A stretch of DNA of 63,974 bases, filler included, from Methanobacteriota archaeon (lineage in GTDB: Archaea > JACRDV01): assembly GCA_024860865.1 (NCBI GenBank). It is 6 parts of 6 records of this genome, joined end to end, with 100 filler letters (N's around TTAATTAATTAA, not from the genome) between each part and the next. Parts side by side here need not be neighbours in the genome. Positions count along the whole stretch, not along the records: positions 1 to 20,428 come from JACRDV010000071.1; 5 more parts are not named here. One strand, written 5' to 3'. Of the stretch, positions 1-52,855 are shown one piece after another. Position 1 is the first letter of the stretch; each line of letters starts with the position of its first letter. A program made the position numbers and the translations under genes. A model generated the notes under the pieces. That model saw only the letters and a list, made by a program, of their open reading frames with translations. It did no database searches and had not been told where the DNA came from.

Positions 1-1345
1 GATAAAGTATTTGAGCAAACATCAAATGTTGCGTGTTTGCCCGGCATTCAAAAGTTTTCTATTGCAATGCCCGATGCCCACTGGGGATTTTGATTAAGTT
101 TCTGCTTAATCGACTCCAAATGGTTTTCCAATAGGCGGCATTGCGGCATTTGACCCAAATGAAAACGGAATTATTAGTGTTGGGGGAGTGGGATTCGACG
201 TAAATTGTGGCGTCAGAGCTCTTAAGACTAATCTCGCATTATCTCAAGTGAGGCCAAAGATAAAAGAACTTGTTGACACTTTGTTTCAAATAGTACCAGC
301 TGGTTTAGGGTCAAGAGGAGAGATAATACTCAAAGGTAATCAGATTAATGATGTCCTCATTGATGGCGCTCAGTGGGCAGTTAAGCAAGGCTATGGTACA
401 GAGGATGATCTCGAACATACAGAGGAAAAAGGGAAAGTTCCAAAAGCTGATCCCGCAAACGTTAGCCAAACCGCAATAAAAAGAGAACAAGGCCAAGTAG
501 GAACATTAGGTTCTGGTAATCATTATTTAGAAATTCAATATGTTGATGAAGTTTATGATGAGGCAATTGCTAAACAATTTGGCTTATCTAAAGACCAAAT
601 TTTAGTTTCAATCCATTGTGGTTCAAGAGCTTTAGGCCATCAAATTGGAACTGATTATTTGAGAATTCTTGCAGATGCCGTGAGAAAATATAACATAAAA
701 ATAAAAGACAGAGAACTAGTTTGCGCGCCATTCAGTTCTGAGGAAGGACAAAGATATTTTTCTGCAACTAACTGCGCAATAAATTATGCATTTGCCAATA
801 GGCAAGTGATTGCGCATCTTGTTAGGAGGGGACTTAGCAAGGTATTTCCAGATGCTGAGGTAAAAACGCTCTATGATGTTGGGCATAATACAGCTAAATT
901 AGAAAAGCACGAGATAGATGGTAAATTAAAAGAAGTTATTGTGCATAGGAAAGGAGCTACTAGAGCGTTTGGTCCCGATAGGGAAGAAGTGCCTAAAGAT
1001 TACAAAAATGCTGGTCAACCAGTGCTCATTGGTGGCTCGATGGGGACGTATTCTTACATTTTAGCAGGAACTGCTGAAGGCGTGAAAAAAGCCTTTGGGA
1101 GCTCGTGCCATGGCGCCGGGCGGACAATGAGCAGAATTGCTGCCAAGAAAAAATATTGGGGAAGCACTTTAGTTAAAGAGTTAGAATCAAAGGGAATTTA
1201 CATAAGAGGCCACTCTATGTCGGGATTGGCTGAAGAAGCTCCAGATGCATATAAAGATGTTTCAGTTGTTGTAGATGCAACTCATGATGCAGGGGTAGCG
1301 AAAAAAGTCGCGCGGCTCAAACCTATGGGAAATGTTAAAGGTTAA
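1..1345 (+). CDS. rtcB: RtcB tRNA-splicing/RNA repair ligase, 5'-truncated; two exons join(<1..88,120..1345)
   Basis: Frame 1 from base 1 reads [29 protein letters not shown]. After removal of 89-119 it continues [12 protein letters not shown]...[27 protein letters not shown], so all RtcB motifs are intact. Confidence 0.96.
89..119 (+). other. Putative archaeal BHB-type mRNA intron (31 nt) in rtcB
   Basis: Helix GGGG(83-86)/CTCC(114-117), bulges AT^T(87-89) and AA^A(118-120), inner stem TTGATTAAG/CTTAATCGA. Splicing gives T|AT=Tyr and restores the frame; the unspliced frame hits TGA at 91-93. Confidence 0.85.
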
Positions 1346-1494
1346 ATTTTAGAATAGTGAAGTTTTATTTTTGTTTTTTTACTGTTTCAATGACTTTTTC
1401 CAGTGACTTTCTAAGATAAGTGGTACCATTCTATATCTCTTAATTTTGATGGATTAAGCTGTTTAAAGAGGCAAGAAAAAGAGGTGAGAATGTA

Positions 1495-4238: not shown

Positions 4239-4338
4239 CGCCGGGGTTGGGATTTGAACCCAAGAGTCCCATAAGGGACACGGGATCTCTGTATTCATCA
4301 TGCTCCAATCCCGCGCATTTCCACTCTGCCACCCCGGC
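4239..4338 (-). tRNA. tRNA-Ser(GGA) with a 16-nt intron at 37/38 (4287-4302)
   Basis: GCCGGGG/CCCCGGC acceptor, G discriminator, long variable arm, GTTCAAATC T-loop; anticodon loop TTGGAG|A. Confidence 0.9.
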
Positions 4339-4557: not shown

Positions 4558-5568
4558 CTACTTCCCCCACATTCGCGGATAGGTTCCTGGCAACATAATA
4601 ACTCTTTCAGTCCTAATCGCAATCCCTTTATTTAACTCAATAATCTGGTCGGTTGTTAACTCACTTCGACCCAATGATATTAATTCATTCTTTAAGGTGA
4701 ATACGGCAACAAAATCATCTCTTTTTATTCCAGTTTCAGCTTGCAAAATTCCGGGTACTGCTAGATGGGCACCATGGCAAATGGCATCAACAGCTGAGTC
4801 TCTAACTGTGACTCGTGGCAGATGTTGAACAGTTTTTTCAAGCGGCTGAATAATTTTTTTCAAAAATTTTTCTTCGCCATCTTCTTTCCAAAAATGATAC
4901 GAGTCCATTAACTCATGAAGTTTAGTTAAAGTTTCATCCTCTTTAAATGGACCTGTTTGAGTCCTTCTAAGCTCTGCCATATGTGCGCTAACGCCAAGTG
5001 CTTCTCCCACATCATGTGTAAGCTTTCGGAGGTATGTTCCTGCCTCACAGCCAACTCTAAGCAAAACATCTTTTTCAATTATTTCGAGCACATCAATATA
5101 GTATATCTTTCTTGGCCGAATTTGTCTTTTAACAGCAGCTCTGATGGGGGGCTTCTGAAGAATAGTCCCAGTAAATTCTCTGCAAACTTCTTTGATGCTA
5201 GCTTCGCTTGCATGTTCGTGTAAGTGCATTACACAAATGTATTCTTTCCCTGCTGATAACAAAGTTTGAATGACTTTTGTAGCATCCTCAAGGGCAGTCG
5301 GTAGAACTCCGCTAACATTTGGGTCTAAGGTGCCGCCATGGCCCGCTTTCTTTAAGCTTAAAATTCTTTTAACCCAAGCAACTACTTCATGTGAAGTTGG
5401 GCCACGGGGTTTGTCAAGGTTGATAACCCCTTTTTTAATGTGCTCTTCAATTGCTCTATTCTCTGGGGGGCAGCCGTACTTTGGGTCGGTGCTTTCTTCG
5501 GCTTTTATTAGAATTTCTCTTCCTTTCTTTTCAAATGGCAATTGGTTGGTCATAAAATCTCCGTTCAC
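4558..5568 (-). CDS. cbf5: H/ACA pseudouridine synthase Cbf5 (TruB family)
   Basis: LDKPRGPTSHEV, GHGGTLDP, C-terminal PUA domain. Confidence 0.97.
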   Translation of the reverse strand: MNGDFMTNQLPFEKKGREILIKAEESTDPKYGCPPENRAIEEHIKKGVINLDKPRGPTSHEVVAWVKRILSLKKAGHGGTLDPNVSGVLPTALEDATKVIQTLLSAGKEYICVMHLHEHASEASIKEVCREFTGTILQKPPIRAAVKRQIRPRKIYYIDVLEIIEKDVLLRVGCEAGTYLRKLTHDVGEALGVSAHMAELRRTQTGPFKEDETLTKLHELMDSYHFWKEDGEEKFLKKIIQPLEKTVQHLPRVTVRDSAVDAICHGAHLAVPGILQAETGIKRDDFVAVFTLKNELISLGRSELTTDQIIELNKGIAIRTERVIMLPGTYPRMWGK

Positions 5569-5594
5569 GTCGAGTTAGCTTTAATGAAAAAACA

Positions 5595-5981
5595 TCAGTT
5601 GACTTGTAGCTCACCTTCGATTATCTTTAAAATCCGAAAGATATCGATAAACTCATGCTTAAAAACGCCTTTGGTATCATGCATATGGTAGGGAAAGGTG
5701 GGAAGCTCTCGGTGATGCGGTGCGTTATCCCATCTCTTTTTTAATTTTCCATTTATATCCTGCCAGTGGAACCTGTACTTCTGAACCTGAAGCTCTTTGT
5801 CAAAAGTTGCGTACACAAATATTTCGAGGATATCGCCGTTTAACAGAACAGCTCTTACTCGAAGGAATCCTTCGAATTCCTTTACCAACTCATCCTCTAC
5901 AGAATAAGACTTCACGGCAGGAGATAGAATTAGTGCACTTTTAATTTCTGAAAAGTATTCGGCGATGGACACGCTATGCAC
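5595..5981 (-). CDS. DUF6516/TumE-like putative toxin
   Basis: YRFHWQD...RWDNAPHH..LPTFPYHMH signature. Confidence 0.75.
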   Translation of the reverse strand: MHSVSIAEYFSEIKSALILSPAVKSYSVEDELVKEFEGFLRVRAVLLNGDILEIFVYATFDKELQVQKYRFHWQDINGKLKKRWDNAPHHRELPTFPYHMHDTKGVFKHEFIDIFRILKIIEGELQVN

Positions 5982-6282
5982 TCTTTATTGCCTTCAGCCT
6001 GCCTTCGACTCTCTCTGCCATATCCAAAAGGGAAGCCCACTGAACAAAGTTAACTTCGTCGCCAAGCTCTCCGGCATTGTATTTTTTCAAAAAATCCTTG
6101 GAGGATATTTTATATTTTTTTTCAAATTCCTTCAATTTGCTCTTTATATCCTTCAGATCCCTTTCGAGACTTTCTATTTTATATAATGCAAGCTTCTCAA
6201 TGGTTTTAATTACTACTTTATCCTCTAAGCCCAGTTTCGCCAGTTCCTCTAACAATTTTATTTTTGAAAGAGCATCCGCCAA
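5974..6282 (-). CDS. Putative antitoxin partner of the DUF6516 protein
   Basis: LKEFEKKYKISSKDFLKKYNAGELGD..FVQW motif; overlaps the downstream gene. Confidence 0.65.
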   Translation of the reverse strand: MADALSKIKLLEELAKLGLEDKVVIKTIEKLALYKIESLERDLKDIKSKLKEFEKKYKISSKDFLKKYNAGELGDEVNFVQWASLLDMAERVEGRLKAIKSA

Positions 6283-11052: not shown

Positions 11053-11681
11053 CTATTTTTTGAATTTTAAAATTGGAACTCGAGTTAGCCTCAATTTTTG
11101 AAGGGCATTAAAAGTTGCTTTTGCATAGTTTATTCGGGTGCATGTCATCCCCTCAGACTTAGACCAAACGTCTTTAATCCCAGCAAGTTTTAAAACAGAT
11201 TTTCCAGTATCCCCTATAGCAAGTCCTAAACCACGCGGAGCGGGCAAAAGGGTGACTTTTATACTTCCAGCCTTTCCAATTGCTTCTGCAATGATACTGT
11301 GGGATTGACCGCAACCGCATTCCCAAGATCCACAGCCACGTCGAACATCGATTAAATTTAACTTGGCATTTTCAATTGCTTTCGGATAGCGGGTCCAACT
11401 TCTTTTGCTTTACCCTGTCCGAGTCCAATATACCCATCTTCATTGCCAATTACAACAGTCGCTCTAAATTTGCTTCGGCGACCTGAAGCATGCATTTTTT
11501 GAACTAAACCGATATCAATAACTTCTTCTCTCAAATTTGGAACTAATACATCGACAATTTGAGGCTCTAAAATTGGCAAACCTTTGCGCAAAATTTCTTC
11601 TAAGCTAGCAATTTTCCCCTCCTTTACCGTCCTGCCTAATTTTGTTTTTGGTTGCCAAGCTTCTAAATCAACTTCTGGCAA
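11053..11681 (-). CDS. rps5: 30S ribosomal protein S5 with an apparent 1-nt frameshift at ~11381
   Basis: WQPKTKLG...EVGPAIRK, then in the shifted frame [23 protein letters not shown]...PAPRGLGL. Confidence 0.93.
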
Positions 11682-11685
11682 ATTA

Positions 11686-12282
11686 TTAACCTCCGATTTT
11701 CTCTGCAATAGCTTGTTTAACCTGTTCAAAATGTTCTGTAAGTTTTTCAGGCATAAGTCCGCTCTTTATATAAACCGAAAAGTGTTTTTCGTATTTTGCA
11801 ACATCTCTTTCTTTCAAAGTTTTTGCATAATTTGCGATATGCTCTCCTTTGATCCGGGAATTATCAGGAAGTATATCCTCACTGCATGGAACACTCATAC
11901 CTGCATCTATGGTGCCTTTAACTGCCGCATATGCGCGAGATCCTTTAACAGAGGATTGAAGTCCAGTGTCGAGAACCCCCTCTTTAATTCCAGCTTTGAT
12001 GGCTTTGATGCCACAGAGATATCCGGTTAAGTATGCTGAGGGAATATTTCCACAGCTGCCTAACCATTTAAAATCGCGTTTAAGTTCATTTGTATGAGCA
12101 GAAATCAAAGTCTCATCGCCTTTTGGTATGGACCTAATAAGCTGAACTATTGTATGATTAAGGGTTTTTCGGATAACTATCCGTGGCTTCCTAGAAAGGA
12201 GTAATTTTAAGCGTTGTCGATAATCAGTTAATCCTTTGCGCTTTCTGCGAAATTGTACACGATATCTCGGACCAATTGCCAT
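11686..12282 (-). CDS. rpl18: 50S ribosomal protein L18
   Basis: [25 protein letters not shown]; start trimmed from the longer ORF. Confidence 0.97.
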
Positions 12283-19241: not shown

Positions 19242-19583
19242 CTATTTAAGCGGGACGTATATGCTGGATTTCGTTGCGCCCATCCCTGGTGCACCGTGAA
19301 GTACTCTTTTTCTGGTTAGAATAAATTCACCAAGATAGTGACCAACCATTTCAGGGAGGATAATCATATCTCTATTATGAGTTCGGAGGATAGGAACCTT
19401 GCTTCCCCGCCTCAGCAATCTCTTAGCTCGTTTAACTCTTTCCAAAAACTTCTTCTGACGAGATGAAAAACCTCGAAGCATAGACCTGCGCTGACGTGAG
19501 GGTAGGAGTTTTATAAATTCATCCATTGGCATTTTTTCCAATTGTTCAAAGGTGAGCCCGCGATAAGTAAACTCTTTTGGCAA
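19242..19583 (-). CDS. rps19: 30S ribosomal protein S19, apparently missing an internal segment
   Basis: [42 protein letters not shown] start just after the rpl2 stop. Confidence 0.93.
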
Positions 19584-19584
19584 A

Positions 19585-20310
19585 TTATCTCCTCCTTCCA
19601 GTTCTGCGCGCTGCAATGTGCCCAACTTTTCTTCCAGGCGGGGCATTTCTCGAAATAGTCGTCGGCCTGCCAGCATGTTGGTGCCTTCCACCGCCAAATG
19701 GATGGTTTACAACATTCATTGCAACACCTCGAACTACAGGCCACTTCCAAGATTTTGCTTTAGAGAGATAATGTACCTTTCCAGCTTTAACAAAAGGCTT
19801 TTCAATTCTTCCTCCACCTGAAACTATGCCAATTGTTGCTCGGCAGTTTGGATCAAGAAATTTCATCTCACCTGAAGGAAGTTGCACAGCGGCTTTATCA
19901 ACTTCATGAGCAACTAAGAGCGCATGAGTTCCAGAGGCACGAGCAAATTTCCCTCCATCACCAGGTTTAGCTTCAACATTAAATATTTGTGCGCCTTCAG
20001 GAATTTCAGCTAAAGGTAAAATGTTGCCAGGCTTTGCTGGAGCTGAAACTCCACAATAGATTTTAGATCCAACTAAAATTCCTTCTGGAGCTAATACTAA
20101 TCTTTCTTCTCCAGTTTCAAATCTAACTCGTGCAACTGGAGCTGTTCTAGCCGGATCATGGAGGATCTCCATTACTTCGCCCCAAAGAGAACCTTCAAGT
20201 TCGCTTTCCTCAAGAGGGCGATAAGTCACTTCGCCTAAATATCTATGGCTAGGGGCCCTATACGTTGGCCCTCCTTTGCCTCTTCTCTGCGATTTTAAAC
20301 GCTTGCCCAT
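19585..20310 (-). CDS. rpl2: 50S ribosomal protein L2
   Basis: [29 protein letters not shown]. Confidence 0.98.
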
Positions 20311-28680: not shown

Positions 28681-29850
28681 TTAATATTTCAATTTAAAAT
28701 TAGAGGGTTGAAGTTTCTCTGGAAGGAATTTGGCTATTTTAAGCATTTTGTTAGTAAAACTCCTTTGGATTGGTCTTGCAGTGTTTTTCTCATGCATTTT
28801 AATTGTTGTTTTAGGTAGCTGGCTGGTGAAACTGCTTTCCCCATTTATATTTGACCTGAGTCTCAGCCATTCTCCAACCTTAGACCACACCTCTTTTTGA
28901 AACTTGGAGCTGACGAAAAGCCCTATGTGTTTTGTTGGGAAAATCAACGTCTTTTTGTCCTTGCTAGAGACAGCTTCCTCCAGGGGCTTACAAGCATCCG
29001 CAGGCACTATGTGGTCTAATTCCGCAACGATATTTAGCACTGGCATATTTATCTTTCGCAAATCAATGCGCTTTCCATCTATCCTCATCTCATTTTTTAT
29101 TAATAAGTTTTTTTGATAGCAATCCTTCAAGAATTGCCTAAAAGCCTCTCCAGCTTGGTCAGGGCTATCAAATATCCATTTTTCCATTCTAAGAAAGTTC
29201 TTAGTAAATTCTACATTATCAACATGTTCCAAGAAAGTAACGTACTTATCTATTATAAGTCGGAATGGATTCAACAACAGAAAGATGTTATTTAAGAAAT
29301 CCCCAGGGACATTACCTAAGGTATCTACAATTTTGTCCACATCAAAGTATTTCACCCATATGTGCAAAAGGCCTGCTTGTGTGCTAAAGTCAATAGGAGC
29401 CACTACAGCAATTAGATTCTTCACTTTGTCAGGATGTAGTGCAGCATACATAACTGAAAGAGTTCCACCTTGGCAAACTCCTAAAAGAGAAATCTTATTT
29501 ATGCCAGACCTTTTTTTAATGATCTCTACTGCTCTATCAATATAGCCATTGATATAATCATCAAGAGTTAGAAATTTATCTGCTCTGCTCGGATATCCCC
29601 AATCGATAAGATAAATATCCATACCCTGCTCTAATAGCCTCCGAATCATGCTCCTATCTGGTTGGAGGTCGAGCATATAAAATCGATTTACCAAGGCATA
29701 TACTATTAATAGAGGTACTGGGTGGATTTTCTCTGCCATTGGATAATAATGGAGTAGCTTAAATTTGTCCTCCTCATAAACCACTTCAGAGGGCGTAGTG
29801 CCAACATCTATGTCAAAATTTTTAAACATATTAAACTTCCTTACACTCAA
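28681..29850 (-). CDS. phaC: Class III poly(R)-hydroxyalkanoate synthase PhaC
   Basis: VGTTP, LIVYALVNR..LDLQPDRS, GVCQGG (catalytic Cys), MEKWIFDSPDQAGEAF, DHIVP, HIG. Confidence 0.95.
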   Translation of the reverse strand: MSVRKFNMFKNFDIDVGTTPSEVVYEEDKFKLLHYYPMAEKIHPVPLLIVYALVNRFYMLDLQPDRSMIRRLLEQGMDIYLIDWGYPSRADKFLTLDDYINGYIDRAVEIIKKRSGINKISLLGVCQGGTLSVMYAALHPDKVKNLIAVVAPIDFSTQAGLLHIWVKYFDVDKIVDTLGNVPGDFLNNIFLLLNPFRLIIDKYVTFLEHVDNVEFTKNFLRMEKWIFDSPDQAGEAFRQFLKDCYQKNLLIKNEMRIDGKRIDLRKINMPVLNIVAELDHIVPADACKPLEEAVSSKDKKTLIFPTKHIGLFVSSKFQKEVWSKVGEWLRLRSNINGESSFTSQLPKTTIKMHEKNTARPIQRSFTNKMLKIAKFLPEKLQPSNFKLKY

Positions 29851-30021
29851 TTTTTATTATTGAATTATTTTATAGAGTTATAAAACTTAAAGATTGTTAA
29901 ATTATTCTCCCTTTGTACGACAAACAGTAGTATAAAGTCAGACAAAAATTAGAAGATAATTAAAAGAGTACTATTCACTCGATTAAAAAAATTAAAATAA
30001 ATTTTTTTCTTATTTCATTTT

Positions 30022-30600
30022 TCAAGAAAGGGCTTTAACTTGGCCAGATAGTTCTCTCACTTGTTTTTTTAGAAGATGTATCTCTCTATTAATTTCATCT
30101 ATATCGCTTTTAGTTGGAAGGGACATTGTTTTTAGGTACCCTTGTGAAACATCCTCATAATATTTTCTAAAATCTAAAAAACTATTAATAAACGCCCCAA
30201 AATCTGAAGCAAATTCGTCTGATCTTAAAAATTTGTCAAAAGTCTCTTCATACGTGCTTATCCAAGCATTGTAAGATTCTTTATAACTTTCAATGGTTAT
30301 TTCTCCCTTCATCATTTTTGATGTCACATCGCGCATCTTCCCCATAGCTTCGGTCCAAGGCCTATAAAACTTAAAGTAGAAGTTCATCCAAGCCTTATAG
30401 AATTTTGTAAAAACCTCAAAGCCTTTAAAAAATTTTTCAGTAATTTCTTTCGCTGGTCCTAAGAGCGTCATTCCTAGAAACTTGCCAAAGGTTTCTTCAT
30501 AGGTTTTCGTCCATAAATTGTAGAACTCTTTGTAGGCCTCAGGGCTTGCAGCCCCTCTTGTAATTTCTGCCATTTTTTTTAGTTGCTCTTCGGTCATCAT
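30022..30600 (-). CDS. phaE: PHA synthase subunit PhaE
   Basis: C-terminal LPTKSDIDEINREIHLLKKQVREL signature; directly upstream of phaC. Confidence 0.85.
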   Translation of the reverse strand: MMTEEQLKKMAEITRGAASPEAYKEFYNLWTKTYEETFGKFLGMTLLGPAKEITEKFFKGFEVFTKFYKAWMNFYFKFYRPWTEAMGKMRDVTSKMMKGEITIESYKESYNAWISTYEETFDKFLRSDEFASDFGAFINSFLDFRKYYEDVSQGYLKTMSLPTKSDIDEINREIHLLKKQVRELSGQVKALS

Positions 30601-30607
30601 TCAGCCA

Positions 30608-31477
30608 TCATATCCATAGTTTATAAAGTTTAAAGTAGAAATCCATTCCCATTTTATAAAATTTCATAAGAGTGGTAGCATAGGTTTCTGAAATTTCCCA
30701 AAAGGGGTCAAACGCTCCTTTAACAGATTCGAACATTGGTACTCCTAGAAACTTGCCAAAGGTTTCTTCATAGGTTTTCATCCATAAATTGTAGAACTCT
30801 TTGTAGGCCTCAGGGCTTGCAGTCCCTCTTGTAATTTCTGTTGCTTTATCTGACATATTTTTCATTGCATCGATCCATGGACTATAAAGTTTAAAGTAGG
30901 AATCCATCCACATCCTCATAATATTAATCAAAGAATCAGAGTATATTCTTAACACTCCGGTCCAATGTCCAAATAATTCTCTCGTAGATTCAATAGCAGC
31001 TGGTCCCAGAAGATCATCAAAAATATCCTCATAAGTCTCTACCCACCTATCGTACAGCTCTTTATATTCCCTTGGATCAGTCTCTCCCTCCAGCATTTCT
31101 GTTGTTTTCTTCGATAAATCCTCCAGTGCGGCTATCCATAACTTATAACGCCCTACAGAGTCATCAGCACCTTTTAACAATTTCTCAAATGTTTCCTTAG
31201 TTGGCGCAAGGAGAGGCGTTCCTATAAACTTGCCAATGGTTTCTTCATAGGTTTTCGTCCATAAATTGTAGAACTCTTTGTAGGCCTCAGGGCTTGCAGT
31301 CCCTCTTGTAATTTCTGTTGCTTTATCTGACATATTTTTCATCGCATCGATCCATGGACTATAAAGTTTAAAGTAGGAATCCAACCACATTTTGGTTATA
31401 TTGCTATATCCGTCGGACCAAATTTTAAAAAAATTTCTTTCTCCTCCAATCATTATATTCCCCCAAGTTAATTTCAT
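30608..31477 (-). CDS. PhaE-like repeat protein
   Basis: Two copies of WMDSYFKLYSPWIDAMKNMSDKATEITRGTASPEAYKEFYNLW. Confidence 0.75.
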   Translation of the reverse strand: MKLTWGNIMIGGERNFFKIWSDGYSNITKMWLDSYFKLYSPWIDAMKNMSDKATEITRGTASPEAYKEFYNLWTKTYEETIGKFIGTPLLAPTKETFEKLLKGADDSVGRYKLWIAALEDLSKKTTEMLEGETDPREYKELYDRWVETYEDIFDDLLGPAAIESTRELFGHWTGVLRIYSDSLINIMRMWMDSYFKLYSPWIDAMKNMSDKATEITRGTASPEAYKEFYNLWMKTYEETFGKFLGVPMFESVKGAFDPFWEISETYATTLMKFYKMGMDFYFKLYKLWI

Positions 31478-31599
31478 TAATCATGTATTTAAAATTCATT
31501 TCATAGTCTAACTAGATATATAAAAAATAATAATAAATCAAACAACAATAATTACTCTTTGTATTTATTTTTTGTGTTTGAACAAAAAACAGGAGGCAT

Positions 31600-32451
31600 G
31601 TGTTAGTGGGTGAAAGATTAAAAGGTAAAACAGCTTTGGTTACAGGGGCTTCAAGAGGAATTGGAAAAGCGATTGCACTAGCTTTAGCAGAAGAGGGAGC
31701 TAGTGTGGCAATTAATTACCAACATAGAGAAGATGAAGCAAGAGAAGTTGCAAAATTAGCGGAGCAAATAGCAAAAACTGAGCAATTATACACTGCTGCT
31801 CTATTAATAGATCACCTAGAAACTAGAGAGCATGCACAGGAAGTAGCAAAAGTAGTGGAAGAACTAGGCGGGTCAGCAATGATTTGCCAAGCAAACGTCA
31901 GCAAGATTGAAGAAGTATATCGAATGAGAGATGAAGTGCTAAAAGAGTTTGGCAAAATAGATATTTTAGTCAATAATGCCGGAATTACTAGAGACAAAAC
32001 GCTAGTTAAAATGACGCCAGAAATGTGGAGAGAAGTCCTATCTGTAAACTTAGATGGAGTTTTTTATTGCACTAAAGCAGTTGTGGAAGGAATGATAGAA
32101 AGAAGATGGGGAAGAATAATCAATACATCATCGGTGGTAGGTGAAATGGGGAATATTGGGCAAACAAATTATGCCGCGTCTAAAGCAGGATTGATTGGCT
32201 TTACAAAGGCTTTGGCAAGAGAATTAGCCGGAAAAGGAATAACTGTAAATGCAATTGCTCCAGGTTTTACAGAAACAGAAATGGTAGCTTCGGTGCCAAA
32301 GAATGTACTGGAAAAAATTGTGGCTCAAATACCGCTAGGTAGGCTTGGAAGACCAAGAGAAATAGCAAGAGCTGTAATTTTTTTGGCTTCAGAAGATGGA
32401 GATTATATAACCGGCCAAGTTTTAGATGTAAATGGCGGACTATATATGTAA
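31600..32451 (+). CDS. phaB: Acetoacetyl-CoA reductase PhaB/FabG-type SDR with an internal insertion
   Basis: TGASRGIG, NNAGITRD, GNIGQTNYAASK; located in the PHA cluster. Confidence 0.85.
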   Translation: MLVGERLKGKTALVTGASRGIGKAIALALAEEGASVAINYQHREDEAREVAKLAEQIAKTEQLYTAALLIDHLETREHAQEVAKVVEELGGSAMICQANVSKIEEVYRMRDEVLKEFGKIDILVNNAGITRDKTLVKMTPEMWREVLSVNLDGVFYCTKAVVEGMIERRWGRIINTSSVVGEMGNIGQTNYAASKAGLIGFTKALARELAGKGITVNAIAPGFTETEMVASVPKNVLEKIVAQIPLGRLGRPREIARAVIFLASEDGDYITGQVLDVNGGLYM

Positions 32452-32653
32452 TGTACCGCTACACCATCCAACATTAAATATTTCAATCTTATTTTTCTAA
32501 ATTATTTTCTGCAATCTTTGCAAATTCCACAAAACTAAATTATTGGATATTTCAATGGACTATGTTTTGTGAGGGACAAGTAATCGATATTTTTTCGAGT
32601 TTAAATATCATTTAATAACTTATAACATTAGTTAATCTTACAAGAGTGCGTTT

Positions 32654-33832
32654 TCACCTTTCAACTATCGTGGCTATCCCTTGCCCACCTCCTATGCAAA
32701 GAGAAGCAAGACCGTATGTTCCTTCTCTTCTCTGCAACTCATATAATAGAGTAATTAGAATTCTCGCCCCACTAGCCCCTATAGGATGACCAAGAGCTAT
32801 AGCACCGCCGTTTACATTTACTTTTTCCATATCCCAACCCATCATCTTACTTACTGCAACGCTTTGAGCTGCGAAGGCTTCATTAACTTCTATTAAGTCT
32901 AAGTCTTCCAATTTTAATCCTGCCCTGTTCAAAGCTTTTTTACTAGCATTCAATGGACCTATTCCCATTATTTCAGGCGGGACTCCAGCAGATGCATAGC
33001 TCTTAATAACGGCCATCGGTTCAATCCCCTTTTCCTCCGCTTTTTTCTCTGACATCAAGACTACAACAGCTGCCCCATCATTTATTCCACAAGAATTCCC
33101 CGCCGTCACACTTCCATCTTTTTTAAAAGCTGGTTTTAACTTACAAAGAGCTTCGAGAGTAGTTCCAAAGCGCGGAAATTCATCAGTATCAAAAACAATA
33201 GGCTCTCCTTTTTGTTGTGGAACCGTTACTGGAACTATCTCTTCCTTAAACTTCCCTCCTTTTACTGCTGCCTCTGCCCTTTTTTGGCTTTTTAATGCAA
33301 ATTCATCTTGCTCTTCTCTAGTAATTTTAAACCTTTCAGCGATATTTTCAGCAGTAATCCCCATATGACAATTATTAAAAACATCCATAAGCCCATCGTG
33401 AACCATTAAATCTATGAGCTCATCGTTACCCATTTTAATTCCCCATCTAGCTCTTTTAATAGCATAAGGCGCGGTTGACATTGATTCGACTCCGCCTGCC
33501 AAAATTATATCTGCATCTTTAAGCATTATCGCTTGGGCACCTAAAATTATAGATTTTAATCCTGATCCGCAAACCTTATTAACGCAATAAGACGGGACTT
33601 CAACTGGAATTCCTGCTCTAATAGCTGCTTCTCTAGCAATGTTCTGGCCATTGCCTGCTGAAAGAACATTTCCTAAAATTACCTCATCAACTTCCTTTGG
33701 GTCAACATTTGCCCTTTTTAAAGCTTCTTTTAAAACTATCTCTCCAAGCTGAGGTGGAGTAAAATCTTTTAAACTTCCTCCAAATTTTCCTACTGGAGTT
33801 CGAACTCCTGTAACAATAACTGGCTTTTCCAT
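32654..33832 (-). CDS. phaA: Acetyl-CoA acetyltransferase (biosynthetic thiolase, bacterial PhaA/AtoB type)
   Basis: [30 protein letters not shown]. Confidence 0.93.
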
Positions 33833-33897
33833 TCTAGATTACCAATAAATTATTAGATACTTCACAGACCCCAATATTGATGCTGTTCTCTTTCCCG

Positions 33898-34944
33898 TTA
33901 AGTTGGCTTGTAGCGATAAACAAAATCGACCCACATCTTTGAGAATCTTAAAGAAGTATCCATATAAACTTTTAGCATGCTTGTCATTGGAGCAAACATT
34001 TCTTTCATTGGCTTGAGCATTGGAATCTCAAGAATGTCAGTAACAGCTTTTTCGTACAACTTTACCCATAGGGTGAGAAATTCCTTTTGAACTTCTGGAG
34101 CCGTATCTACTTTGACCATATCACTCGCTTTCTCTGACATTTTTTCTAAAGCAGGCATCCAGGACTTAAAGAGCCTTAAATACACATTAAAGCTTTCTAA
34201 AAAGCTTTCGAGCATTAGCTTTGTTGGTAACTCTCTTTCTGCTCCAAAAATCTTACTGAAAGTCTCTTTATAAGTGTCCATCCATAAGTTGTAAAATTCT
34301 TCATATGCTGTTGGAGAAGCCTTGCCTTCAGCAATTTCTGCTGTTTTTTCAGCAATTTTTCCAGTTACATCTATCCATGGTTTAAAAAGTTTTTCAAAAG
34401 ATTCTTTCCAAACATTTGAAGCTTTTGCGAGAAAACCTATAAACATTTCCGGCACGCCAAAGTAATATCCAAAGGCCCCCTTCAACGGTTCGGATACCGG
34501 CGGCTTAAAGGAATAATCTAAAATTTTTTTATAATTTTCCAACCATAGAGCATAAAATTCTCTAAGCTTTTCAGGAGTTGTTGGCCCTGTCAATGCTTCA
34601 GAAGTTTTCTTTGAAATGTCCTCTAATGTTGAAATCCAAGATTTATAGGCTGCAATATTATCTTCACTAGTTTTTAAAAACTTTTCAAAAATTTCTTTAT
34701 CTAGTGAAGGCGTTACTAACTTGCTGAAGGTATCTTTATACGTGGTAATCCACAACTCATAAAACTCTTTGTAGGCCTCTGGGCTTGCAGCCCCTCTTGT
34801 AATTTCTGTTGCTTTATCTGACATATTTTGCATTGCATCGCTCCATTGTTTAAAAAGCGCCCCATAAGATTCTTCCCAATTTTTTAAAAAGTCATCATAA
34901 AAATTTATCCATTTCTCAGTGCTGGTTTTCTTTTCTTCTTCCAT
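33898..34944 (-). CDS. PhaE-like repeat protein (likely start MEEEKK)
   Basis: Four degenerate PEAYKEFYELW-type modules; GAGGGTG SD before the ATG at 34944. Confidence 0.75.
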   Translation of the reverse strand: MEEEKKTSTEKWINFYDDFLKNWEESYGALFKQWSDAMQNMSDKATEITRGAASPEAYKEFYELWITTYKDTFSKLVTPSLDKEIFEKFLKTSEDNIAAYKSWISTLEDISKKTSEALTGPTTPEKLREFYALWLENYKKILDYSFKPPVSEPLKGAFGYYFGVPEMFIGFLAKASNVWKESFEKLFKPWIDVTGKIAEKTAEIAEGKASPTAYEEFYNLWMDTYKETFSKIFGAERELPTKLMLESFLESFNVYLRLFKSWMPALEKMSEKASDMVKVDTAPEVQKEFLTLWVKLYEKAVTDILEIPMLKPMKEMFAPMTSMLKVYMDTSLRFSKMWVDFVYRYKPT

Positions 34945-35139
34945 AGTTTCACCCTCTTTGTGTTTTATTGAAAAACTTTCGTTTCTTGAATGTTGCCGGT
35001 AACAATACAAAAACAAAAAACCTAAGCTAAGTTTTTGCTCTAGCTGAGAAAGCTAGAGAGGTTTTATTTTCATTTGATTTCAAATAAATGGCCTTTTATG
35101 TTGGTTGGATTTTAATATATAAACCTTATTAATATGAAG

Positions 35140-39517: not shown

Positions 39518-39928
39518 TCAATACCGTTGAATATCTATTTTTATGACTTCTTTTATTAGCTCGAAGTGTTTTATATTTCTTGTAACAACAGTGCTGTAGC
39601 CGTTGTTTAAAGCTACTGCAGCTGTTATCGCGTCTGCGCCGACTTCCCTTCCACTTCTCAACAGAGTGCCGCCTATTTCTGAAGCCTTTAGAGCATCTCT
39701 ATATTTAAAATCTAAAATTTCCACCCTGTTGAAAGCTTTATCTAATTTTTCTTTAATCTTCTTGCGAGTTTTATCATCCTTAACGGCAAATGCCCCGATA
39801 TAAGCTTCAAAAACATTGAGCACGGTTGTAGCTGCACCCCCCTCCTCATCTATTTTTTGAGTTATATCGCGAATTGCATCTGGATTTTTAATCAAGTCCA
39901 CAAAATAAGTTGTGTCAAGGCAAATCAT
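39518..39928 (-). CDS. vapC: VapC PIN-domain toxin
   Basis: CLDTTYFVD, ADAITAA, VTRNIKHF. Confidence 0.9.
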   Translation of the reverse strand: MICLDTTYFVDLIKNPDAIRDITQKIDEEGGAATTVLNVFEAYIGAFAVKDDKTRKKIKEKLDKAFNRVEILDFKYRDALKASEIGGTLLRSGREVGADAITAAVALNNGYSTVVTRNIKHFELIKEVIKIDIQRY

Positions 39929-40155
39929 AGTGCAAAGCCTTGTTTAAATTCTTCATCTAGCTTAGCTCTTATCTTCTTCACTGAGTTTTCATATTCAGAT
40001 ACTTCTCTAAGCTCAGAATGCAAATCCAGAATCTCGCTAAGCGTGGCTTTTTTCTTGGTTAACCTTTTTATCACGTCAGAGAAACTCTCGTCCTTAAGCT
40101 TCATGTTGCGTAAAAGCTTATAGGCATCATCAGAAAGCGAAATAGTTTTTGTCAT
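39925..40155 (-). CDS. vapB: VapB (DUF217) antitoxin
   Basis: MTKTISLSDDAYKLL..K...ESFSDVIKRL. Confidence 0.9.
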   Translation of the reverse strand: MTKTISLSDDAYKLLRNMKLKDESFSDVIKRLTKKKATLSEILDLHSELREVSEYENSVKKIRAKLDEEFKQGFAL

Positions 40156-40364
40156 GTATGTGTATGTGCGCACATATATATTTAAAAGTTTTGAGTTTGC
40201 CTAAATGGCGCTTTTTAAGTTTGCTATCCGCGTTGTTGTCCACGACCTACTCAGACGACCCGTTAGTCATCTCTCTTGATGTCTAATACCTGATCACCTA
40301 AGAGTGCTGCACTTCTTTATGAAAAATATGCTCTATAACTGCTCAATTCATAGATTTAGTATAG

Positions 40365-40480
40365 CGGGCCCGCCGGGATTTGAACCCGGGTCACGGGGTA
40401 TCTCCCGAAGACCGAATTCAGGCAGTAGAAATTTTTTCTAACTGTGCCCCGTATGCTAGTCCGGACTATACCACGGGCCC
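40365..40480 (-). tRNA. tRNA-Arg(TCG) with two introns: 32/33 (40417-40445) and 37/38 (40400-40411)
   Basis: GGGCCCG acceptor, G73, D-loop GGA. BHB1: helix CGGG/CCTG, bulges GC^A and AA^T. BHB2: helix CTTC/GGAG. Mature anticodon loop CT-TCG-GA. Confidence 0.85.
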
Positions 40481-48931: not shown

Positions 48932-49219
48932 TTATCTTTTCTGCCTTGCTAAGCGAAGAGGTGGATGCCCAAAAACTTCTTCATATGTGTAGATTCCACC
49001 TTTTCTAGAATCTTCTTGAGCTTCTCGAAGTATTCGCAGAGCATGAGGATCTGCCATTTCCTCTAATGTTGCCATTATGCTGTTATATTGTTTAGCTCCC
49101 ATCATAACAGCAATTGGTTTTCCCTTTCTGCTGACCACGATTTGTTTTCCGAGCTCAGCATCTCTAAGAAGTCGTGTTAATCTTTTATGTACTTCCTTCA
49201 CACCAACTACTTCTGCCAA
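48932..49219 (-). CDS. Phd/YefM antitoxin
   Basis: IVVSRKGKPIAVMM...YNSIMATLE. Confidence 0.88.
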   Translation of the reverse strand: MAEVVGVKEVHKRLTRLLRDAELGKQIVVSRKGKPIAVMMGAKQYNSIMATLEEMADPHALRILREAQEDSRKGGIYTYEEVFGHPPLRLARQKR

Positions 49220-49299
49220 AATTTATCACCACATAAATTTTATTTCTTAATTTTTAAATTTGGAAATTCTAAAAATTTTCTTCCTTCTTGAGTTGCAAT

Positions 49300-49480
49300 T
49301 TGATCTCATAAAGTTTTTCTAATGATCCACACTAATTCATCCCAACTAAGAGAAGCGTAGCGGCCTCTAGAGAACCTCCTGCTATTTTGATTAGCACATT
49401 TTTTGCTAATGAAGCTTCCTTTCAATTCGCTCATCATAAATAACGGGGTAAATAAAAACATTCGCATCAATGTATTCTAT
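49300..49480 (-). pseudogene. VapC PIN toxin remnant
   Basis: YIDANVFIY, then several frameshifts (..SWDELVWIIRK). Confidence 0.65.
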
Positions 49481-49718
49481 ATTCTTCCTCAATTTGTTTT
49501 TCTCTGATCTTTTCTATGTCTATTTTTTTCGTTAATTTCTTAGGAACAGTGCAAAATTCTTCCACAAATTGTTTAGGATCTTTGAAAGGTCTCAAGATAA
49601 CTTCTTTTTCTTTAACCTCAAAAATTATTTTTGTCCCCGGTTTAATTCCAAGATGCTCTCGTATATCTTTAGGCACAACTATTTGCCCTTTTTCACCGAT
49701 AACTCTCCTTATTTTCAT
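49467..49718 (-). CDS. AbrB/MazE-family antitoxin
   Basis: GEKGQIVVPKDIREHLGIKPG. Confidence 0.9.
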   Translation of the reverse strand: MKIRRVIGEKGQIVVPKDIREHLGIKPGTKIIFEVKEKEVILRPFKDPKQFVEEFCTVPKKLTKKIDIEKIREKQIEEEYRIH

Positions 49719-52419: not shown

Positions 52420-52659
52420 GTGAAAAAAATGAGAACAGTAATTCAAGTTTATAAGGAAGATAAATATTTCGTAGCAGTTGATCTTGTAACAAATGTGGCA
52501 GACCAAGGATTAACTGAAGAAGAAGCTGTTGCAAATCTAAAAAAAGGACTCGAAGAACATTACCAAATTCTCATGGAATTATCTCCAAAGGATCGTAAAA
52601 TTTCTTTCTTAGATATTGAGGTAGAAAAATACGTCCAAGCTTCCCATCCTGTCAGCTAA
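52420..52659 (+). CDS. hicB: HicB-like antitoxin
   Basis: VADQGLTEEEAVANLKKGLE. Confidence 0.85.
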   Translation: MKKMRTVIQVYKEDKYFVAVDLVTNVADQGLTEEEAVANLKKGLEEHYQILMELSPKDRKISFLDIEVEKYVQASHPVS

Positions 52660-52855
52660 GGATGTTATTAAAGTTTTAGGGAAGTTTGGATTTAAAATCT
52701 ATCGACAAACTGGAAGTCATATTCACTTATGGAATGAAGAGCGGAAACTTCTTGTAACTGTTCCAAATCATCCAGAATTGGCAAAAGGAACCCTAATTTC
52801 GATTATAAAACAAGCAAAAATAGAACGTGATGAATTTCTTTCAAAATTGAAATAA
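52631..52855 (+). CDS. hicA: HicA toxin with ACG in place of the start codon
   Basis: (T)SKLPILSAKDVIKVL.KFGF..YRQTGSH...TVPNHPELAKGTL; SD GAGGT 8 nt upstream. Confidence 0.8.
   Translation, partial: TSKLPILSAKDVIKVLGKFGFKIYRQTGSHIHLWNEERKLLVTVPNHPELAKGTLISIIKQAKIERDEFLSKLK

Follow-up and report, generated by a model that had tools for sequence, protein, structure and literature searches.

A probable bulge-helix-bulge intron in the coding sequence of the archaeal RNA ligase gene rtcB

We describe a 31-nucleotide (nt) insert in rtcB, the RNA ligase gene at the start of a 63,974-nt stretch of DNA (the window) from the metagenome-assembled genome of Methanobacteriota archaeon JACRDV01 (GCA_024860865.1; here G000). 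Window positions 89-119 are very probably a genuine, relaxed bulge-helix-bulge (BHB) pre-mRNA intron that is cut by the splicing endonuclease EndA and rejoined by RtcB, the product of the interrupted gene; we infer the splicing from sequence, through the predicted fold, the flanking coding sequence and the conservation of same-site inserts in relatives. The window joins six contigs of this one genome with N spacers between them, and positions 1-20428 are contig C15 (JACRDV010000071.1). The genome comprises 1.54 Mb in 160 contigs with 36.5% G+C and an estimated completeness of 92%.

Contig C15 begins within rtcB, and the gene is therefore 5'-partial in the window (Table 1). About 39 N-terminal codons were not found anywhere in the G000 assembly, an assembly gap and not a feature of the gene. 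Exon 1, which is 83% identical to the N-terminal region of homologue P0007, matches positions 1-24 of the Pfam RtcB profile (PF01139). The frame that opens at position 122 runs for 407 residues to the stop and matches profile positions 26-426 with 522 bits. Between the two pieces a single profile position is missing, that of the split Tyr codon, and 31 extra bases are present. The translations and the two Pfam pieces agree with the initial annotation of this DNA, in which an insert at 89-119 split the conserved motif HWG-Y-GFPIGG, added an in-frame TGA at 91-93 and shifted the frame. Exon 2 aligned to residues 71-481 of P. horikoshii RtcB (1uc2), with the split Tyr as residue 70. In this alignment the equivalents of Asp95, Cys98, His203, His234, His329 and His404 (P. 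horikoshii numbering) were all present downstream of the insert, so the downstream catalytic motifs are intact, as had also been claimed. In RtcB one manganese ion is held by Asp95, Cys98 and His203 and the other by Cys98, His234 and His329 (PMC10630183). The PF01139 match and the six catalytic residues place the product in the RtcB family, with its first ~39 codons off the contig edge.

Gene callers use a GTG downstream of the intron as the start of this gene. The database proteins P0003 and P0004 are near-identical, 385 residues long and begin MGFDVNCG; they match contigs from two sequencing runs (X1 and X2, below), and independent gene calls were thus cut short in the same way. The initial annotation had foreseen the start at position 188. 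Its further statement, that the shortened product would lose the metal-binding Asp of the MPD motif, did not hold: Asp95 is the Asp of GFDVNCG, lies 3' of the intron and is retained in the 385-residue call, and a role of the MPD Asp as a ligand was without support.

The region around the insert has a strong predicted RNA fold. RNAfold gave -33.9 kcal/mol for positions 60-150 (z = -3.86), and 0 of 200 shuffles were equally stable. With A118-A120 taken as the second bulge, the fold has two opposed 3-nt bulges around a 4-bp helix, the 3-4-3 layout of a BHB, followed by an inner stem and loop. The GGGG/CTCC helix and the ATT and AAA bulges of the initial annotation were all recovered, while its inner stem of 9 bp became one of 10 bp by RNAfold and its outer CCA/TGG stem was dropped, being separated from the 4-bp helix by C81-U82 and not conserved. 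We also tried an exon-exon helix (66-78/137-150) as the outer helix and rejected it, with 55% of its positions paired in relatives and no real covariation. The rule given for the intron of cbf5 is that the cut falls between the second and third bulge residues (PMC2738675). Cuts after the second base of each bulge join T88 to A120-T121 as TAT, the Tyr codon, in the correct frame, which confirms on the sequence the splice sites first proposed; the predicted spliced junction reads GGGGAT/ATGGTTTT (here and below, a slash marks a join). In silico, then, excision restores the product both by a fold-based rule and by the Pfam pieces.

Inserts at the same codon are present in other archaea. We scanned genome and metagenome collections for TGGGG followed, after a gap, by codons for GFPIGG(V/I)(A/G)AF. 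Among the 239 matches listed, at least 42 other loci had an upstream frame with ..D.HWG, an insert of 28-33 nt and then GFPIGGVAAF; 177 of the 239 had the spacing seen when a TGGGG occurs by chance 41 nt upstream in an uninterrupted gene. Twenty of the insert loci were in species-representative genomes. The 18 with a title shown carried Woesearchaeota, Aenigmatarchaeota and Nanoarchaeota/Nanoarchaeia labels, besides two Methanosarcinales and one 'archaeon', and the RtcB of the two Methanosarcinales-labelled records grouped with Woesearchaeota-labelled ones. One further homologue, P0079 (65% identical to the window RtcB), starts MPTGDIELSNFVIFSTR-YGFPIGG. Its first five residues correspond to the DAHWG codons read in the +1 frame, from which we take it to be a read-through of a same-site insert with an inferred length of 37 nt.

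Counting the window, there were 38 unique segments, and with positions set by the exon anchors alone all 38 had, in order, GGGG, an N-T-N bulge, a stem, 4 nt and an N-N-A bulge. The stems were 3-11 bp long and diverse in sequence, the 4 nt were mostly CCCT, CTCC or CTCT, and excision always gave Gly-(T/AY)-Gly. All four central pairs could form in 33 of the 38. Covariation was assessed in a MAFFT alignment of 39 sequences (alignment A1). Paired cells made up 92.5%, against 69.7% in shuffles, and every one of the nine inner-stem pairs had changes on both sides. The covariation score was 0.645 versus 0.203 in shuffles, was attained by none of 500 shuffles and dropped to 0.07-0.16 when partners were slid by 1-3 columns. 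Compensatory change of the kind that marks a BHB is thus found among relatives, and the same-site inserts with a covarying BHB that the initial annotation had proposed to look for exist at the 42 or more loci, with covariation in 9/9 inner-stem pairs. RNAalifold independently recovered the inner stem and three central pairs in a register shifted by one base, a shift that the GGGG of the 5' strand permits.

A splice rule drawn from the fold alone gave the same result. In each minimum free energy (MFE) fold we took the partner of the first inner-stem base and counted on through 4 helix and 2 bulge nucleotides; this restored HWGYGFPIGG in 35 of the 39 sequences, including the window, and the four misses were mis-folds. 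Insert lengths were spread over the three phases (14, 14 and 11 for remainders 0, 1 and 2 modulo three). An in-frame stop was present in 37/39 inserts, a few codons past the 5' splice site and often as GGA TTY TGA; in the remaining two the frame is shifted. Each of the 14 inserts with a length that is a multiple of three carried an in-frame stop, and none of the 39 could be read through to a normal RtcB. The stops in those 14 may reflect selection against read-through, or shared descent.

The predicted splicing enzymes are encoded in G000. We found a single rtcB locus in this 92% complete genome, and so no second intact copy of the kind that the initial annotation had held would count against splicing. 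One EndA gene was detected (182 residues, around 11876-12130 of contig C51). Its triad motifs FRVY, AHS and VRK were read by eye in alignments, the triad being as named in PMC5829648, and the protein aligned almost gaplessly to the homotetrameric M. jannaschii enzyme (1a79), with a fused M. kandleri construct as its best match. endA lies directly upstream of trpS (373 residues) on the minus strand of contig C51 (locus L034, 287-2022), the same arrangement as in Haloferax volcanii (PMC7714728). Five intron-bearing relatives each had a single EndA of about 195-227 residues. In three of them (G041, G044 and G045) there was one rtcB locus each, with stops inside the match; a fourth (G042) had one locus, split at profile position 25 and with an intein-like insert as well, with no stops listed; and the fifth (G043) had two interrupted rtcB loci. 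Archease was not detected in G000 (E = 0.035). Other copies of the intron were not found in G000 by blastn, and the sole other match of a covariance model of the introns had E = 5.

The tRNA genes suggest that this genome relies very heavily on its splicing endonuclease, most of the detectable ones being interrupted. Aragorn reported 25 tRNAs in G000, 20 of them predicted with introns, and Rfam tRNA had 23 matches over its cut-off, 13 of which span 89-119 nt. The remaining tRNA genes have probably escaped both programs through heavier disruption, by several introns or by split or permuted genes. Two tRNA genes fall in the window. tRNA-Ser(GGA) has an insert of ~16 nt in or close to the anticodon loop (Rfam 47.2 bits; aragorn intron (35,16)), and a 116-nt match (C16:19837-19952; RF00005, 37.3 bits), called by aragorn as Arg(TCG) with a 29-nt intron, was missed by the window Rfam scan at the gathering threshold. 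Without its intron option aragorn found no tRNA in the whole window.

On the intron reading, the rtcB transcript would fold so that the GGGG of the Trp-Gly codons pairs with the CUCC near the 3' end of the intron. The single EndA would cut at 88/89 and 119/120, after the second base of each bulge, and RtcB would join the exon ends, a 2',3'-cyclic phosphate and a 5'-OH, recreating the Tyr codon (T/AT) and the frame. The 31-nt intron would be released, probably as a circle, and the mature mRNA would encode the complete ligase. Unspliced mRNA stops at the TGA and cannot encode a full-length ligase, and RtcB synthesis would consequently depend on EndA and on RtcB already in the cell, with pre-existing RtcB handed down at cell division. 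The control logic of such a system is a positive loop, in which ligase is needed for ligase, plus a feed-forward input from EndA; it is not obviously homeostatic and is not the negative feedback, sensing splicing load, that the initial annotation implied.

Several observations weigh against this reading or its stricter forms. The strict hBHBh' motif is not present: neither the window nor the RNAalifold consensus of relatives has a helix adjoining the bulges on their outer side. Five of the 38 segments form just 2-3 of the four central pairs in the fixed register, namely four 'ACCA AAA'-type segments with 2/4 pairs (three Aenigmatarchaeota-labelled and one metagenome contig) and one segment with 3/4. 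Compared with the M. jannaschii enzyme and with the EndAs of the five intron-bearing relatives, that of G000 has no insert; the one exception is 6 residues in G042. According to PMC5829648, enzymes that lack a specific loop had been regarded as restricted to canonical motifs, and homotetramer-type enzymes, likewise regarded as strict, occur with an extra loop in DPANN lineages that have many disrupted tRNA genes. At 92% completeness the assembly could have missed a second rtcB. A Pab1020-type ATP-dependent RNA ligase (TIGR01209, 426 bits; C98:6805-7875, plus strand), which uses different end chemistry, is also encoded in G000; with it present, strict dependence on RtcB is not proven. No sequencing run listed with the locus was on record as RNA. 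The intron is also rare. In a sample of 401 genomes from one DPANN phylum, that of one Woesearchaeota-labelled genome, a strict pattern matched 10 and its reversed-pattern control none, and a covariance model of 38 introns, which finds the window's own site at 46.8 bits, matched 0 of 150 other archaeal genomes sampled as relatives of G000. None of 40 sampled relatives had its RtcB match split at profile position 25. G000 is the sole genome of its phylum among the genomes compared.

That rarity bears on what the intron does. We put the chances at about even that it is a real intron without a regulatory role, a near-neutral or selfish element for which the TGG GGN TAY codons happen to supply half of the cleavage motif and whose precise loss is rare. 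The invariant GGGG fits this account, as coding sequence dictates the exon half of the motif, and so does the distribution on a quick FastTree tree of 229 exon-2 proteins, for which a complete downstream frame was required (20 loci with the intron prior to the merging of identical sequences; 17 rows scored as carrying it). On this tree the pattern of intron presence implies a minimum of four to five changes, whether gains or losses. In the main intron-bearing group, of 11 plus 3 rows, a single intron-less row is nested, and L087, P0079 and the window each stand alone among intron-less rows. The nearest homologues of the window RtcB, at 69-70% identity, have no intron. Set against a neutral history, the intron has been kept in a main clade that has diverged down to 55% identity in exon-2 RtcB, with that one intron-less row nested, and the same codon is hit in Woesearchaeota- and Aenigmatarchaeota-labelled RtcBs that are 50-58% identical to the window's. 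The stops in 14/14 multiple-of-three inserts also hint at selection, with kinship inflating their apparent independence. The window intron shares its first 12 bases with the L087 intron and resembles the common YTGAKTAAG...CTTAWTCR type. From these sequences, the intron would be either old and often lost or mobile between rtcB genes.

Autoregulatory use of the rtcB intron is possible; its rare and scattered occurrence is just as compatible with a near-neutral element. The stronger proposal is that the intron is a selected, self-referential control element by which RtcB synthesis would be licensed by active EndA and RtcB, with ligase competence inherited through protein and not solely through DNA. 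We offer it tentatively, as an idea with perhaps a modest chance of being right.

An artefact of assembly or sequencing, or a decaying rtcB pseudogene, would also yield an interrupted frame. The insert sits near a contig end (89 nt away), depth is low (~7-10x), and the ribosomal protein S5 gene, also in the window, has an apparent 1-nt frameshift. Contigs of two runs from different studies nevertheless span window positions 1-1400 with 0 gaps and carry the insert, as the initial annotation would lead one to expect of sequencing data, here in the form of assembled contigs and not raw reads. The X1 contig (1943 nt) has 3 differences from the window, and X1 may be the source sample of the window. 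The X2 contig (2988 nt) has 29 differences over 1400 nt, with none listed upstream of position 196, and represents a strain that is ~98% identical. The two extend 470 and 960 nt upstream of the window start, respectively. Among the sequencing-run contigs aligned over 1-1400 none was without the insert; those of runs X3 and X4 break near 71-118, and their uncovered parts were given no weight. Good rtcB coding sequence on both sides of the insert, and the structured inserts at the same codon in at least 42 other loci, speak further against an artefact. As for decay, all catalytic residues are intact, and this is the sole rtcB locus of a genome rich in interrupted tRNA genes. We regard error and decay together as very improbable.

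Translational bypass is known from phage T4 gene 60, and here bypass or a programmed frameshift would keep the insert in the mRNA and have the ribosome skip it. A stop codon and a stable hairpin soon after a Gly codon lend the site a superficial resemblance to a bypass site. It has no matching take-off and landing codons, however, and the Tyr codon is not contiguous in the window DNA and arises only by joining T88 to A120. Inserts of 28-33 nt in all three phases with conserved 3-4-3 spacing suit an EndA substrate and not a ribosome, and we consider such skipping very improbable. Least credible of all is a split gene whose N-terminal fragment, up to the TGA, assembles with a C-terminal polypeptide into an active ligase: split genes are known from small archaeal genomes (PMC3491384) and gene callers do give a 385-residue C-terminal product, but the junction has no start codon (the earliest, GTG 188, lies 22 codons into conserved sequence), positions 122-187 are conserved in frame at the protein level and are thus translated as part of the upstream reading, and the break falls within a codon.

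No intron in an archaeal rtcB was described in the literature that we searched as full text, a body of work to which subscription journals are mostly external; the initial annotation, which knew of none, stands in that respect. The text available from PMC4090602, PMC12397907, bioRxiv 10.64898/2026.10.13.758758 and PMC11291895 does not mention one. In the available text of PMC7714728 (2020), the cbf5 mRNA intron is the only additional archaeal BHB intron reported besides the authors' own case in a 5' untranslated region (UTR), and that of PMC2738675 has introns in further protein genes predicted only in a Sulfolobus virus and Sulfolobus genomes.

The crenarchaeal cbf5 intron (Watanabe 2002; Yokobori 2009, PMC2738675) is similar to the rtcB intron in that its cuts are predicted between the second and third bulge residues, its gain and loss are patchy, and gene callers mis-annotate the host gene. 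The two differ in host gene and in lineage, with rtcB interrupted in uncultivated small-genome archaea and cbf5 in Crenarchaeota. rtcB encodes the ligase that finishes the reaction, which makes the dependence self-referential, and the endonuclease here looks homotetramer-type, unlike the crenarchaeal heterotetramer. Splicing of cbf5 is supported by cDNA (PMC2738675), whereas that of rtcB is predicted from DNA. cbf5 itself is uninterrupted in the window, with DKCLD, TruB_N, TruB_C_2 and PUA in one 338-residue frame. Archaeal tRNA and rRNA BHB introns share with the rtcB intron the same predicted enzymes (EndA and RtcB), the 3-4-3 geometry and a similar size, whereas the latter would be in mRNA, with no tRNA body or adjacent outer helix to aid recognition. 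The 5'-UTR intron of Haloferax volcanii HVO_1309 is likewise an EndA substrate in mRNA, which here is a prediction; it lies in an untranslated leader and is cut in vivo and in vitro (PMC7714728), whereas the rtcB intron interrupts coding sequence.

Inteins in RtcB are also intervening elements in this gene, near the active site. Unlike the rtcB insert, which bears a stop and must be removed as RNA, they are in frame and are removed from protein. The RtcB match was broken at profile positions 47-50 in 6 of the 40 sampled relatives (G022, G029, G030, G032, G034 and G037), in frames of 817-1472 residues. These breaks are intein-like inserts beside the Cys98 motif, and the Aenigmatarchaeota-labelled G042 combines the BHB intron with an insert of this sort in a single rtcB.

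In eukaryotic HAC1/XBP1 splicing, the stress-activated kinase-endonuclease IRE1 cuts the mRNA at stem-loops, tRNA ligase or RTCB joins the ends, and the product is a transcription factor. A non-spliceosomal cut-and-join that changes the frame of an mRNA is common to that system and to the one proposed here, and joining in animals is by an RtcB homologue. The rtcB case differs in that EndA would act at a BHB and the message encodes the ligase, and a regulatory role that is shown for HAC1/XBP1 is a guess here. This unconventional mRNA splicing is named in PMC8718801 and PMC13247085.

We looked for introns in other protein genes by a Pfam scan of 123 stop-to-stop frames of the window, in which the only other split gene was that of ribosomal protein S5. 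We rejected it as intron-bearing: the break is an apparent 1-nt frameshift and not an insert, the N- and C-domain frames overlap, and the gene reads on if one base is added in cgaaag/caatt. A sequencing error, a real frameshift or recoding would each give this pattern. A short-chain dehydrogenase has ~30 extra residues with a repeated ...EVAK... motif after the NAD-binding turn; the stretch had no significant RNA fold (z = 0.63) and is more likely an in-frame duplication than an intron. Ribosomal protein S19 matched its Pfam family in two stretches, the best covering profile positions 1-45 of 81, with a central piece seemingly missing, and either a real deletion or a collapse across repeated motifs could account for the gap. 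The window also holds a polyhydroxyalkanoate gene cluster and several toxin-antitoxin-type genes (Table 1).

Table 1 Features of the rtcB locus and other features of the window (window coordinates).
Feature	Position	Strand	Remarks
rtcB exon 1 (partial)	1-88	+	Upstream Pfam RtcB piece; last base T88 is the first base of the split Tyr codon
Central 4-bp helix, 5' strand GGGG	83-86	+	Pairs with 114-117; from Trp-Gly codons; columns invariant in 39 sequences, helix 94% paired
5' bulge A-U-U	87-89	+	All three bases left unpaired by the MFE fold; EndA predicted to cut after T88
Intron, 31 nt	89-119	+	TTTGATTAAGTTTCTGCTTAATCGACTCCAA; excision restores HWG-Y-GFPIGG
Inner stem and loop	90-113	+	Stem 90-99/104-113, 10 bp including two G-U; UUCU loop 100-103 (RNAfold)
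In-frame TGA	91-93	+	Ends translation of unspliced mRNA; frame 1 of 1-93
Central 4-bp helix, 3' strand CUCC	114-117	+	Pairs with 83-86
3' bulge A-A-A	118-120	+	Predicted cut after A119; MFE fold pairs A118 with U82, two bases left unpaired
rtcB exon 2	120-1345	+	A120-T121 complete the Tyr codon; stop TAA 1343-1345
GTG used as start by gene callers	188-190	+	385-residue product without the first ~91 residues (P. horikoshii numbering)
tRNA-Ser(GGA)	4239-4338	-	
cbf5	4561-5574	-	
Ribosomal protein S5	11056-11765	-	N-domain 11361-11765, C-domain 11056-11409; break near 11385
Ribosomal protein S19	19245-19706	-	
Polyhydroxyalkanoate gene cluster	28684-35052		PhaC-like hydrolase, PhaE-like subunits, thiolase, short-chain reductase, phasin-like protein
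Short-chain dehydrogenase	31582-32448	+	
tRNA match, Arg(TCG)	~40365-40480	-	
Toxin-antitoxin-type genes	5598-5984, 39521-40200, 48935-49222, 49470-49718, 52625-52852		TumE, PIN with VapB-like antitoxin, Phd/YefM, MazE, HicA

With its rtcB cut to 385 residues by gene callers, a genome of this kind may be recorded as one with a defective or unusual RNA ligase. The window extends the intron to an RtcB lineage distant from the main intron-bearing clade and to a genome that is a phylum-level singleton among those compared. Going by the portions of the published literature available to us, rtcB would be the second archaeal coding-sequence host of an endonuclease-type intron after cbf5, and the sole one that encodes the enzyme completing the splicing. 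It offers a concrete, testable case of archaeal mRNA splicing with a built-in dependence loop and a parallel to XBP1/HAC1. If the proposal of a selected control element were true, an element maintained at one codon across RtcBs that are ~50-58% identical would be an archaeal counterpart of the RtcB-dependent unconventional mRNA splicing of eukaryotes.

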